In this document: one piece after another, positions 4,402 to 62,587 of the stretch
How the letters are laid out: every line of letters starts with the position of its first letter
Numbering within the stretch: position 1 is the first letter of the stretch
The notes under the pieces: generated by a model
Seen by the model: the letters and a program-made list of their open reading frames with translations, nothing else
What the model was told of the DNA's origin: nothing
Database searches by the model: none
Assembly: GCA_043803815.1 (NCBI GenBank)
Contig: JAZDJR010000029.1
Location: 1-64,000, forward strand
Source of the DNA: Candidatus Micrarchaeota archaeon
GTDB taxonomy: Archaea; Iainarchaeota; Iainarchaeia; Iainarchaeales; JAGVWC01
Reading direction: 5' to 3'
Length of the DNA: 64,000 nt
Program-made: the position numbers and the translations under genes

Positions 4402-4469
4402 GGGGCTTTAGCATAACCCGGCAATGACGGCAGCTTTTTTTCCTGCGGGAAAAAAACCTGGGAAAAAAG
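4402..4469 (+). pseudogene. Duplicated tRNA-Trp 5' half followed by T-run/A-run hairpin repeat
   Basis: 4402-4423 identical to tRNA-Trp nt 1-22, similar to about nt 32, then TTTTTTTCCTGCGGGAAAAAAACCTGGGAAAAAAG. Confidence 0.75.
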
Positions 4470-4495
4470 AAAACAAAACGCAAAAAACAAAATAA

Positions 4496-4612
4496 GGGGC
4501 TTTAGCATAACCCGGCAGTGCGGCCGCCTCCAGAGCAGGTTTTGCAGGCAATTGACCTGAAAAAACTGCGCAAAGCGAGCGGTTGATGGGGGTTCAAATC
4601 CCTCAAGCCCCA
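4496..4612 (+). tRNA. tRNA-Trp(CCA) with 44-nt intron (4534-4577)
   Basis: Acceptor GGGGCTT/AAGCCCC, anticodon stem GCCGC/GCGGT, T arm GGGGGTTCAAATCCCTC, intron at 37/38. Confidence 0.9.
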
Positions 4613-7339: not shown

Positions 7340-7393
7340 GTTTGCGGCTTTGCGAAGCAATTTTTCCCAAGGCTTTTTGCTTGCAAAAAGGCT
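7340..7393 (-). repeat. tRNA-associated hairpin repeat downstream of tRNA-Ala
   Basis: Minus strand GCCTTTTTGCAAGCAAAAAGCCTTGGGAAAAATTG resembles the tRNA-Ser and tRNA-Arg introns. Confidence 0.7.
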
Positions 7394-7395
7394 TT

Positions 7396-7466
7396 TGGAC
7401 TCGCCGGGAATCGAACCCGGATTTCGTCCATGCGAAGGACGCTTCCTACCGTTAGAATACGAGCCC
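7396..7466 (-). tRNA. tRNA-Ala(CGC), intronless
   Basis: GGGCTCG/CGAGTCC acceptor with G3:U70, CGTCC-TTCGCAT-GGACG anticodon arm, GTTCGATTC T loop. Confidence 0.93.
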
Positions 7467-10807: not shown

Positions 10808-11125
10808 AGCAGTAGTGGAAGGTTTGCTATCGCTTGGCCGAAAGGTTTCAAGTGAGGAAAGTCCGCCCACTTCAATTCAAAACCACTTCCGAAAGGATGT
10901 CCGCGAGAACAGAAACGGCACGGTTTCGACCGTGCGCACCGATATCGGGTACCTTCGGTACCCGTGGTGTGCATGACAAAACCGATGAAACGGCTTGCGG
11001 TTAAAATCCCGGTCACGCCGGGAGGAAGTGCAACACCCAAAGCCGGTGGCTTAGACGGATGCAAACAATCCCGTTTTTTACAAAAAACGGGACGAACAGA
11101 AGGCGGCTTACTCTCCACTGCTGCT
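10808..11125 (+). ncRNA. rnpB: RNase P RNA
   Basis: GAGGAAAGTCC and AACAGAAGGCGGCTTA conserved regions; P1 pairing AGCAGTAGTGGA/TCCACTGCTGCT. Confidence 0.93.
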
Positions 11126-19754: not shown

Positions 19755-19883
19755 GGACCTGTAGCCTAGCCTGGATAGGGCACCTGCCTTCTAAGGCTTT
19801 TTCTTCAAAAGAAAAACCCTGGAAAAAGAACAGGGAACGTCAAGGCGAGCAGGGGGTCGTGGGTTCAAATCCCACCAGGTCCG
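19755..19883 (+). tRNA. tRNA-Arg(TCT) with 54-nt intron (19794-19847)
   Basis: GGACCTG/CAGGTCC acceptor, CCTGC/GCAGG anticodon stem, GTGGGTTCAAATCCCAC T arm. Confidence 0.92.
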
Positions 19884-57918: not shown

Positions 57919-59118
57919 TCAAACCACCTCTTTTTTCAGTTGCGTGGCTTGGGTAATGGCTTCTTGGATGATGTTGGGGTTGGTTTTAGCCATTTCAAGC
58001 AATTTCATTACTGCGACCATGGCTTCTTGGTCTTTTTGGCGCGTCATTTCCACTGAATTGATAGCCTGGGGGGTCAACGGTAGCCAGCATTGTTTACAGT
58101 ATTGGCTGTTTACGTCGTTGGGTGTTTTGCAGCGGGGACAGTTTTGTTGTAGTAAAATGATTTCTTTTTTTTCGGGTTTTTTTAAACCGTTTAGCTCCAA
58201 AATTGCGTTGTCGACTTGTTTTCCGGACAGGTGGACGTAGCGTGAGGCCATGTCGCTTCCTTGGGTCCAGCCGAAGTATTCTTTCATTTGGGCTTCAGTC
58301 AGGAATTGCGCCATGTAGGTTGCGCGTGAGTGTCGGAAGTGGTGGGGGTTGACTGGTTTTTTTATTCCCGCGCGTTTGGCGGCGCCGCGGATTACTTTGA
58401 TGATGTAGGCGTAGACGACTTGCTGGGTTTTTTTTCGGGTAAGCGTTACCCACAAGGGCGCGTTGGGGTCGTGGTTTTGGGGGTGCTCATTTATCCATTC
58501 CAATAAATAGGGTGCGCTGGATACTAGTCGGATGCGGCGCATTCCGGTTTTGCCGTCGACCATTACTTGACACCCGAATTCGTCGAATTGCACGTTTTTG
58601 AGTTGTAGGCCTCCAATCTCTCCTATTCGGGCCCCGGATTCCCAGATGCACGAGATAAGTGCTTTGTCGCGTTTGGTGTGTGTGTTTTGGAGCAGGGTTT
58701 TTACTTCTTCTTGGTTTAATAGGTCGTCCGGCAGTCGTTTGTATTTGGATTTGGAACCGCTTTTTATCCAGGCCACGCATTCGGGGTAGGTTCCTTTGTT
58801 GAACCACTTGTAAAACACTTTTAGGGTGGCTCGAAAAGTGGCAATGGATTCTTCGGCATAGTCGCTGGTTTTCATCCAGACCAAGAAGGTTTCCACGTCT
58901 TTGGCGGTAATCGTGTCAAAGGGTTTGGGGATTTTTTGGCTGAAAAGGCGCAAACAGGATGCTATGCGTAGGATTCGGGGGGTTGAAATGCCGTTTACGG
59001 TTTCAAAGTTGTGGAAATCCGTCATCCATTGCTTGTTTTGGCTTGGAATGTCGGCTTTTTCAATTCGTTCCTGTTCCTTGACTAGGTAGTGGTCGTAGTC
59101 GTGTAGGTATTTTCTCAT
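57919..59118 (-). CDS. Tyrosine integrase with C-terminal zinc ribbon
   Basis: SGARIGE, GKTG, HHFRHSRAT, GW..YVH; CPRC..CKQC. Confidence 0.95.
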   Translation of the reverse strand: MRKYLHDYDHYLVKEQERIEKADIPSQNKQWMTDFHNFETVNGISTPRILRIASCLRLFSQKIPKPFDTITAKDVETFLVWMKTSDYAEESIATFRATLKVFYKWFNKGTYPECVAWIKSGSKSKYKRLPDDLLNQEEVKTLLQNTHTKRDKALISCIWESGARIGEIGGLQLKNVQFDEFGCQVMVDGKTGMRRIRLVSSAPYLLEWINEHPQNHDPNAPLWVTLTRKKTQQVVYAYIIKVIRGAAKRAGIKKPVNPHHFRHSRATYMAQFLTEAQMKEYFGWTQGSDMASRYVHLSGKQVDNAILELNGLKKPEKKEIILLQQNCPRCKTPNDVNSQYCKQCWLPLTPQAINSVEMTRQKDQEAMVAVMKLLEMAKTNPNIIQEAITQATQLKKEVV

Positions 59119-59185
59119 CAAATCACGTCTCCTTTTACCCAACCGAAAACCAATTAAAAGAGACGGATTCAAACAATTTGGTAAT

Positions 59186-59289
59186 TGCAGGCGGGCAGAT
59201 TCGAACTGCCGAAAGCCACTAAGGCACAAGCCCATTGACCGTTGATACGGGCCTCAAGCTTGCGAAATTGACCGCTATTCGACGCCTGC
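59186..59289 (-). tRNA. tRNA-Leu(GAG) with 19-nt intron; integration target
   Basis: GCAGGCG/CGCCTGC acceptor, long variable arm, BHB-type helix TTGA/TCAA. Confidence 0.92.
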
Positions 59290-62248: not shown

Positions 62249-62376
62249 GACTGCAAAAAACACCGCTAATTTTTTGTTCTTTCAAAGAATGACTGCTCCC
62301 CGTTCTAAATAGGGAAATATCCGAAGCTTGACCTGGAAAATACCTTAAAAAACCGATTCAACCCAATTCTTGCATT

Positions 62377-62430
62377 GCGGAGATGGCTAAACCTCAGCTT
62401 TTTGCTTTGGGCAAAAACCTGGGAAAAAGC
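62377..62430 (+). pseudogene. Duplicated tRNA-Ser 5' end fused to intron-like hairpin repeat
   Basis: GCGGAGATGGCTAAACC (16/17 match to tRNA-Ser nt 1-17) then TCAGCTTTTTGCTTTGGGCAAAAACCTGGGAAAAA. Confidence 0.8.
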
Positions 62431-62448
62431 AGCTCTGAAAAATTTGAT

Positions 62449-62587
62449 GCGGAGATGGCTGAACCTGGTTAAGGCGCACGCCTGGAAACTCAGCTTTTTT
62501 GCTTTCAGCAAAAAACCTGGGAAAAAATTGTTTAGCCCGTGAGCGTGTGGGCGAAAGCCCTTGTGGGTTCAAATCCCACTCTCCGCG
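62449..62587 (+). tRNA. tRNA-Ser(GGA) with 54-nt intron (62488-62541)
   Basis: GCGGAGA/TCTCCGC acceptor, CACGC/GCGTG stem, GGGCGAAAGCCC variable arm. Confidence 0.92.

Follow-up and report, generated by a model that had tools for sequence, protein, structure and literature searches.

A dispersed hairpin element beside a spare tRNA-Ser start and within the tRNA-Ser intron of an archaeal genome

A 2026 preprint on Asgard archaea, in which copying, mobile elements and reverse transcription were put to the test, describes the arrival of introns in archaeal tRNA genes as an open question (10.64898/2026.10.13.758758). We analysed a 64,000-nt window, the whole of the stretch presented here (contig C29, positions 1-64000, of a 1.08-Mb Candidatus Micrarchaeota assembly in 36 contigs, 85.6% complete), in which a tRNA-Ser(GGA) gene is preceded by a spare copy of its own first bases, a short hairpin and a spacer, and carries a hairpin of the same family in its intron. 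The locus is probably what a small hairpin element, non-coding and non-autonomous, left behind on inserting in the D-loop-coding DNA of this gene. The same short sequence occurs as free insertions whose junctions are clear and as the core of introns, here less than 100 nt apart. Their side-by-side occurrence provides a defined substrate for studying intron gain, and the element may shed light on how introns of archaeal tRNAs change or originate.

Several described systems share features with this family. The tRNA-linked repeats (TLRs) of E. coli are non-coding inserts beside tRNA or rRNA genes that end in 18-19 bp of the host gene end and may be tandemly repeated (PMC8144298), as at locus L040 of the hairpin family. 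Compared by description, TLRs copy 3' ends only (PMC8144298), whereas the hairpin family duplicates 5' as well as 3' ends, and the ends of protein genes too, in either orientation; it also has a hairpin with a conserved mismatch and forms intron cores. TLR-type 3'-end copies were found at L040, L041 and L037 and at three genes of this genome; the tRNA-Ser locus is a 5'-end copy. The transposed tRNA introns of Thermoproteales are related introns in different tRNA genes of one genome, described as of unknown mechanism (PMC4090602; 10.64898/2026.10.13.758758). Unlike these, 20 of the 25 copies of the hairpin found here lie outside introns and are often flanked by a long duplication, and the host introns are at position 37/38. 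In Caldiarchaeum, the tRNA-Thr-F/Thr-II attachment-site (att) fragment is a 5' tRNA fragment upstream of a reconstituted gene and is tied to intron gain, but the insert is 1.8 kb long and encodes a recombinase (PMC3293823); the insert at tRNA-Ser is ~54 nt, contains no gene, and the duplicated segment changes with each target.

The PATEs, SMRs and MITEs of Haloquadratum are tiny mobile repeats of archaea without a transposase, PATEs being palindromic and without terminal inverted repeats (PMC3119063). SMRs and IS605-type elements are described as having no target duplication, and MITEs and SMRs as having terminal inverted repeats (PMC3119063). The hairpin family differs from the Haloquadratum repeats in its duplications of 13-41 nt and in showing no match to the ends of 30 Y1 loci. 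REP and REPIN sequences, which occur with RAYT, are dispersed extragenic hairpins with a conserved mismatch. The hairpin family is also dispersed and has a conserved mismatch, but no RAYT was found with NCBIfam NF047646 as the test. Casposons also target tRNA gene ends, with a ~15-bp duplication, but are large and carry terminal inverted repeats and Cas1 (PMC5137440), which was found in 0 of 13 element-rich genomes. The bacterial intrastrand triplex repeats TM/PIT share a pyrimidine run, a purine run and a second purine run, with local instability (PMC4666352), whereas the hairpin family is A/T-rich and its covarying 3-bp closing stem would use most of the triplex linker.

The tRNA-Ser(GGA) locus, its junction and its leader

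The locus contains the following features (window coordinates).

62344..62350, + strand: TATA-like box TTAAAA, 33 nt 5' of the spare copy, a putative promoter element
62376..62394, + strand: spare copy of tRNA-Ser positions -1 to 17a, with A for G at position 13 (18/19; duplication score 16 against a control maximum of 13)
62393..62428, + strand: family hairpin, upstream copy, with 3-bp closing stem, C·C mismatch, T5/A5 stem, short loop, GG and A-run (45 bits, E 1e-7; a training sequence of the model)
62429..62447, + strand: 19-nt spacer, with no source found in the genome
62449..62587, + strand: tRNA-Ser(GGA) gene, its start being the second copy (Rfam RF00005, 42 bits against a cut-off of 29)
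62488..62541, + strand: canonical 37/38 intron of 54 nt with a relaxed bulge-helix-bulge (h 3/3, H 3/4, h' 2/3)
62489..62527, + strand: family hairpin, intron copy, T6/A6 (47.5 bits; a training sequence of the model)
62530..62537, + strand: intron tail, the exact reverse complement of 62385-62392 in the spare copy, A13 variant included (8-nt match)

Direct reading and a repeat search both showed that 62376-62394 and 62448-62466 are identical at 18 of 19 positions, the sole mismatch (A62389 against G62461) falling at tRNA position 13. An earlier interpretation made from the letters of the window (the sequence-only reading) had matched 62377-62393 to tRNA nucleotides 1-17 at 16/17, and our count is the same. 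It had also described a copy of the intron joined to the spare start: the first ~40 nt of the intron do recur upstream (62393-62428 against 62489-62527), but its last 14 nt are absent there. The insert between the two tRNA starts is ~54 nt long and gene-less, and the whole unit including the spare start is 72 nt. Both copies fold into the same hairpin (-13.4 kcal/mol upstream and -13.9 kcal/mol in the intron, with 7/200 and 0/200 shuffles as stable), and the lengths of their T-runs and A-runs vary together (5/5 upstream, 6/6 in the intron) while their loops differ. The anticodon GGA and the intron bounds were taken directly from the sequence. Excision of 62488-62541 gives back a 7-nt anticodon loop at a relaxed bulge-helix-bulge, as defines an archaeal tRNA intron. 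No source of the spacer was found in the genome (the best match, 17/20 in a coding region on contigs C10 and C11, was rejected as chance, 2/60 shuffles reaching 17), and the spacer is unlike both the intron tail and the upstream flank. The 3' 17-mer of the gene occurs once in the genome at up to two mismatches.

The duplication is also found outside this assembly; misassembly had been a concern of the sequence-only reading. A 151-nt contig of depth 2 from another study, belonging to a relative, spans 62376-62487 with six differing letters and one gap (~94% identity). The five listed differences and the gap all fall in the hairpin loop or the spacer and none in the stem, and the flank 5' of 62376 differs from that of the window. 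In a second run, a syntenic relative (~85-88% alike) tracks the window up to 62390 and then enters a hairpin variant. Both contigs come from relatives, and the contig-covered parts of the window were those used in this comparison; no same-strain contig was found among five runs, none of which contained more than 0.14 of the sampled words. Misassembly of the tRNA-Ser junction is unlikely because a contig from another study crosses it. That the repeat itself produced an assembly artefact, as the 36 contigs might suggest, is scarcely credible given that loop and run length are not the same in the two hairpins, that one independent contig crosses the junction and another reaches the hairpin, and that the same layout is present in other genomes.

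The TATA-like box at 62345, placed by the sequence-only reading upstream of the spare copy, is indeed there and would serve as a single promoter for both copies. No other such box occurs within 110 nt 5' of the real tRNA-Ser start, from which this one is 105 nt away, and its distance of 33 nt to the spare copy is usual for tRNA genes of this genome (28-48 nt at many other tRNA starts). A sigma-70 promoter scan was set aside because it does not apply to archaea. The spare copy, hairpin and spacer likely form a transcribed leader that is removed by RNase P, whose RNA is encoded in the window.

10811..11122, + strand: RNase P RNA, component of the enzyme proposed to trim the leader (RF00373, 86 bits against a cut-off of 84)

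This RNA has insertions relative to the Rfam model, one of which is a 25-nt hairpin with U/A runs that does not match the family model.

The sequence-only reading had offered a second non-canonical intron as an alternative, with the 72-nt segment spliced out and the spare copy serving as the real 5' exon. The spacing of the promoter-like box fits the spare copy, which is also kept in two related contigs and wins the acceptor pairing in a folding model (0.74, against 0.25 for the gene's own start; cloverleaf-compatible folds lie ~5 kcal/mol above the minimum, in a model that disregards tertiary structure and folding order). However, none of 21 junctions tried for the segment gave a full bulge-helix-bulge, and the central helix has at most 2/4 pairs at the true junction, 16-18. 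A nominal h-B-H does form at 5/6 (h 3/3; H 4/4 with two G·U), but it uses leader bases, breaks the acceptor stem, has no counterpart at tRNA-Trp and would be matched by chance among the registers tried at ~0.1 (a rough estimate). Splicing at 5/6 would yield a product with G13, so the base at nucleotide 13 (A or G), proposed earlier as a marker of the 5' copy in use, would miss it. The single tRNA-splicing endonuclease (EndA) gene found in the genome (contig C17, L091) encodes 175 amino acids, a length that fits the alpha4 type; enzymes of this type are described as requiring a strict motif at the canonical site (PMC3239211). Most 37/38 introns here have 2-3/4 central-helix pairs despite this single EndA, so the strict-motif rule is not airtight in this genome and the enzyme appears tolerant. 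The mirror-image 3'-end layouts described below cannot be introns. We consider a second intron very improbable. A search for split tRNAs found three Ser-type 3' parts, all within whole genes, and no Ser(CGA) piece in this 85.6% complete genome.

A hairpin family and its layout at gene ends

The upstream hairpin and the intron hairpin belong to a family with a covarying structure that occurs in tRNA introns and in a recurring layout X-hairpin-spacer-X, where X is a duplicated segment of a gene end. We characterised the family using a strict pattern, an alignment of 34 copies and a covariance model, scoring 105 candidates per genome with the model. With the strict pattern, this genome gave 16 copies and the reversed genome 0, and an exact pattern matched 10 GTDB genomes, nine of them archaeal by title; two of the 10 agree with a lineage in Iainarchaeota, the probable one of this genome. 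The covariance model (E<=0.01) identified at least 25 copies in this genome and had matches in at least 27 of the 61 genomes of the order. The consensus of the 34 copies is ~40 nt long and consists of a 3-bp closing stem, an invariant C·C mismatch (34/34), a T/A stem, GG and an A-run. Across the alignment, 98% of cells were paired with 36 two-sided changes, which 0/500 shuffles equalled; the structure was drawn from the same sequences, so the slide control is flattered. Sixteen of the 25 copies found here are in or beside tRNA genes, five of these in tRNA introns, and the 20 outside introns are free-standing DNA. Copies in and beside tRNAs occur in both orientations, which fits a step at the level of DNA. 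A literature search, which left subscription journals and supplements outside, found no description of this hairpin, and the family of gene-end-duplicating elements is apparently undescribed.

In this genome, 7 of 37 profile matches had a flanking direct repeat scoring >=16, the tRNA-Ser locus itself scoring 16, and none of 300 swapped-flank controls exceeded 13. We then assembled 141 elements from this genome and from relatives' loci picked among the best model matches. On the 5' side 34 of them scored >=12 (2/396 controls), at least five of the 34 being tandem arrays of the element itself, and 13 scored >=12 in mirror geometry. X is 13-41 nt long and matches each host gene's own sequence, and the spacer varies from a few to more than 100 nt.

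Among the 32 tRNA genes tested here, four (Ser, Trp, His and Pro) have a copy of their 5' end upstream and three have a copy of their 3' end downstream; a fifth 5'-end match was a neighbouring tRNA gene. The sequence-only reading would have been undermined had no other tRNA shown the pattern. Its interpretation, that an intron-like element landed in D-loop-coding DNA and left a duplicated 5' end as its footprint, is instead supported by this recurrence. The tRNA-Trp gene provides a second instance in the window.

4402..4612, + strand: tRNA-Trp(CCA) instance, with spare 5' copy (24/25), family hairpin at 4427-4469, A-rich spacer and tRNA-Trp at 4496-4612

Its upstream hairpin is a family copy, and the tRNA-Trp intron is not among the model matches. 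The tRNA-His gene has no intron, yet it shows the same 5' layout. Two other families of genomes have the 5'-end layout at tRNA-Ser, each with its own X (L009, L186), and protein-gene starts are duplicated likewise, with a border at or near ATG.

Several minor observations concern other hairpins and tRNA fragments. The tRNA-Trp intron is a degenerate hairpin at most, while the tRNA-Arg(TCT) intron, at 19755-19883 (+), is built on the family hairpin. At 7360-7466 (-), a family copy adjoins the 3' end of tRNA-Ala without duplication. A second dispersed hairpin repeat is often fused to the first (C8:31174, C18:82231, C18:38445, C14:41838 and C14:45802), and is also found inside the tRNA-Glu(CTC) intron and between 3'-end copies of tRNA-Ser(TGA). 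At L011 (G058:C1:95609), a hairpin unit with T/A runs is repeated several times in tandem after a 5' half of tRNA-Ser(GGA). At C25:28072-28155 (-), a tRNA-Leu gene is closely followed by a T-arm/acceptor fragment that is nearer to another tRNA-Leu gene, with no family hairpin between them.

Mobilising enzymes and routes of insertion

We profiled four enzyme families (Y1_Tnp, RVT_1, IS110 and Cas1) across genomes, all of which are incomplete to some degree. Among the 13 genomes with at least five copies of the hairpin, Y1_Tnp was found in four, RVT_1 in one, IS110 in two and Cas1 in none, and Y1_Tnp was also present in 9 of 34 genomes in which no copy was found. RVT_1 had no match in this genome (85.6% complete). 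No hairpin better than E 0.31 was found in 30 Y1 loci. A RAYT candidate, a full-length Y1 protein on a contig that also holds a hairpin array, was identified as an IS200-type TnpA (93.9 bits with the IS200 model, cut-off 55; 24.2 with the RAYT model, cut-off 80). It lies 2 kb from that array and is not flanked by the family hairpin. The IS200-type tnpA at L031:1362-1990 (contig C21) has T/A-run hairpins at its upstream end that are faintly like the family (E 0.34). In the window, 57919-59235 (-) encodes a 438-aa XerA-like tyrosine recombinase, below all curated cut-offs, 3.1 kb 5' of tRNA-Ser. No further copy of either tRNA-Ser end that could be its att partner was found in the genome.

For each mobile-element family compared, the hairpin family lacks, or cannot be shown to have, a defining feature. 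Compared with att-site elements, there is no gene between the repeats, X differs per site and the recombinase lies outside; compared with MITEs, the hairpin is at one end only, the duplication is 13-41 nt and the spacer ranges from a few to more than 100 nt. No RAYT gene is flanked by the hairpin, as would be expected of a REP/REPIN-RAYT system, no palindrome is shared with the 30 Y1 loci and a target duplication is present, unlike in PATE or IS200-IS605 elements, and there are no Cas1 and no terminal inverted repeats, which casposons have. Fragments of tRNA beside DPANN tRNA genes need not mark integrated viruses.

We infer both the mobility of the element and the order of events from sequence. 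The hairpin would insert in D-loop-coding DNA and leave the first 18-19 bases of the gene on both sides; the downstream copy would head an intact gene, transcription would yield a leader made up of the upstream copy, the hairpin and the spacer that RNase P removes, and a second family member would form most of an ordinary 37/38 intron. As the route of insertion we tentatively prefer strand-switch DNA synthesis, to which we assign rather less than half of the weight among mechanisms. A strand ending in the D-loop would be extended with the hairpin through 1-3 nt of microhomology, would sometimes fold back and copy 5-9 nt of its own flank, and would then re-copy the gene end; only events that preserve the whole gene would survive. 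This route is favoured because duplication and spacer lengths vary, and because of the microhomology, the fold-back tails, the occurrence in both orientations and the lack of a tracking enzyme among the four families profiled.

Fold-back was measured as inverted flank sequence right after the A-run, in a narrow 14-nt test designed after the data had been seen. At least 6 nt were found in 11 of the 141 elements (permutation mean 3.3, maximum 9 in 1000) and in 6 of 33 elements with a duplication. Where the signal is clearest, the match stops ~2 nt short of the hairpin on one side and begins 0-3 nt after the A-run on the other. Pairing of X with the whole spacer was not significant (3/24 at p<=0.05).

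Several points weigh against insertion as set out above, in addition to the folding figures for the acceptor stem and cloverleaf. No empty/filled allele pair from one species was seen, 107 of the 141 elements have no duplication scoring >=12, and none of the four profiled enzymes tracks the family. The fold-back excess is modest (5/141 at >=6 nt in a reverse-only control), and the upstream copy at tRNA-Ser has a 3-nt inverted match only. In tRNA cases read by eye, X stops 0-2 nt from the mature tRNA end in ~14 of 15, its other border being in or near the D- or T-loop; a blind strand switch with a survival filter leaves such sharp mature-end borders unexplained.

Because of these sharp borders, a trans-acting recombinase or transposase stays a close rival, although we think it unlikely. 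It would produce the same footprint by cutting once where the mature tRNA ends and once in the neighbouring D- or T-loop (a tyrosine integrase, HUH or casposase-like enzyme, from a virus or plasmid), and differs from strand switching in the enzymatic step only. X spans the mature end to the neighbouring loop in both orientations, and the invariant mismatch of the hairpin resembles a protein-recognition feature. Such a mismatch serves in protein recognition by HUH transposases. Precedents include the A. boonei casposase, with a 15-bp duplication beside the T-loop part of tRNA-Pro (PMC5137440), and a pNOB8-type insertion in Caldiarchaeum, after which a 5' fragment of tRNA-Thr was left 1.8 kb 5' of the gene (PMC3293823). 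The scattered distribution of Y1_Tnp (4/13 element-rich genomes, and 9/34 without a copy), IS110 (2/13) and Cas1 (0/13) argues against an enzyme of this kind, as do the poor hairpin scores in the 30 Y1 loci, the variable lengths of X and spacer, the uniqueness of X to each site and the lack of terminal inverted repeats.

Borders at mature ends would also be expected from an RNA route, in which the splicing enzymes link a hairpin RNA or an intron, once excised, to a processed piece of tRNA and the joined RNA is then copied back into DNA. The ~14/15 mature-end borders, the five of 25 copies inside tRNA introns and the presence of EndA agree with this. However, RVT_1 is limited to one of the 13 element-rich genomes and has no match here, the duplicated 3' ends that were read have no CCA, many copies are antisense, and the same layout occurs at protein-gene starts with a border at or near ATG, all of which make an RNA route improbable.

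Kinship of the two copies and age of the intron

The tRNA-Ser locus is special in having a free copy beside an intron copy, with a possible trace linking both. The sequence-only reading took the upstream hairpin to be a copy of this gene's intron; it is instead a member of a genome-wide family, but the kinship stands in that, among the other 20 copies of this genome in the set, the best match of the intron copy is the upstream copy (22, next 19). In addition, the intron tail at 62530-62537 is an exact 8-nt inverted copy of 62385-62392, a length reached by 0.1% of 5000 swapped pairs. This match has the fold-back geometry of the family and is suggestive of a shared local origin of the two copies. 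Three observations pull the other way: for the upstream copy, the intron copy ties with C36:9646 and two copies from other genomes; the tail bases have a second, weaker pairing in the splice motif; and the tail differs in relatives' contigs. We regard the case for a shared local origin as evenly balanced. It is doubtful that the element is, more broadly, a ~40-nt selfish DNA of DPANN archaea that spreads by the machinery of the host alone, spares essential genes by copying gene ends, and seeds or rewrites tRNA introns, the D-loop element here having folded back and been copied to 37/38 of the same gene with its tail completing the splice motif.

The kinship of the hairpins could also reflect a one-off local event in which the 5' half of the intron-bearing gene was duplicated in tandem and the DNA between the D-loop and the start of the intron was then deleted through microhomology. 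Similar stretches of 5-6 nt do occur at the D-loop and the intron start (62390-62394 and 62486-62490), and from the intron's side the two hairpins are the nearest kin in the genome. We give this little credence, as the spacer has no likeness to the tail of the intron or to the flank upstream, the intron-less tRNA-His gene has the same 5' layout, and the tRNA-Trp and tRNA-Pro introns are not among the model matches.

In another genome of the same family (G003, L002), the tRNA-Ser(GGA) gene has family hairpins in its intron and no spare 5' copy. The upstream insertion would therefore be lineage-specific and the 37/38 intron is probably the older of the two, with intron content that turns over.

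Long hairpin introns hide tRNA genes from annotation. Rfam models identified an archaeal RNase P RNA and four tRNA genes in the window, and a default ARAGORN run gave one of these four. ARAGORN with introns and a lowered threshold gave 181 calls, mostly spurious, and was rejected as a tRNA inventory. Base 32 pairs with the third-last base of the intron in 9 of the 13 intron-bearing tRNA genes as registered, four of which may be registered wrongly. This pairing resembles the eukaryal anticodon-intron pair.
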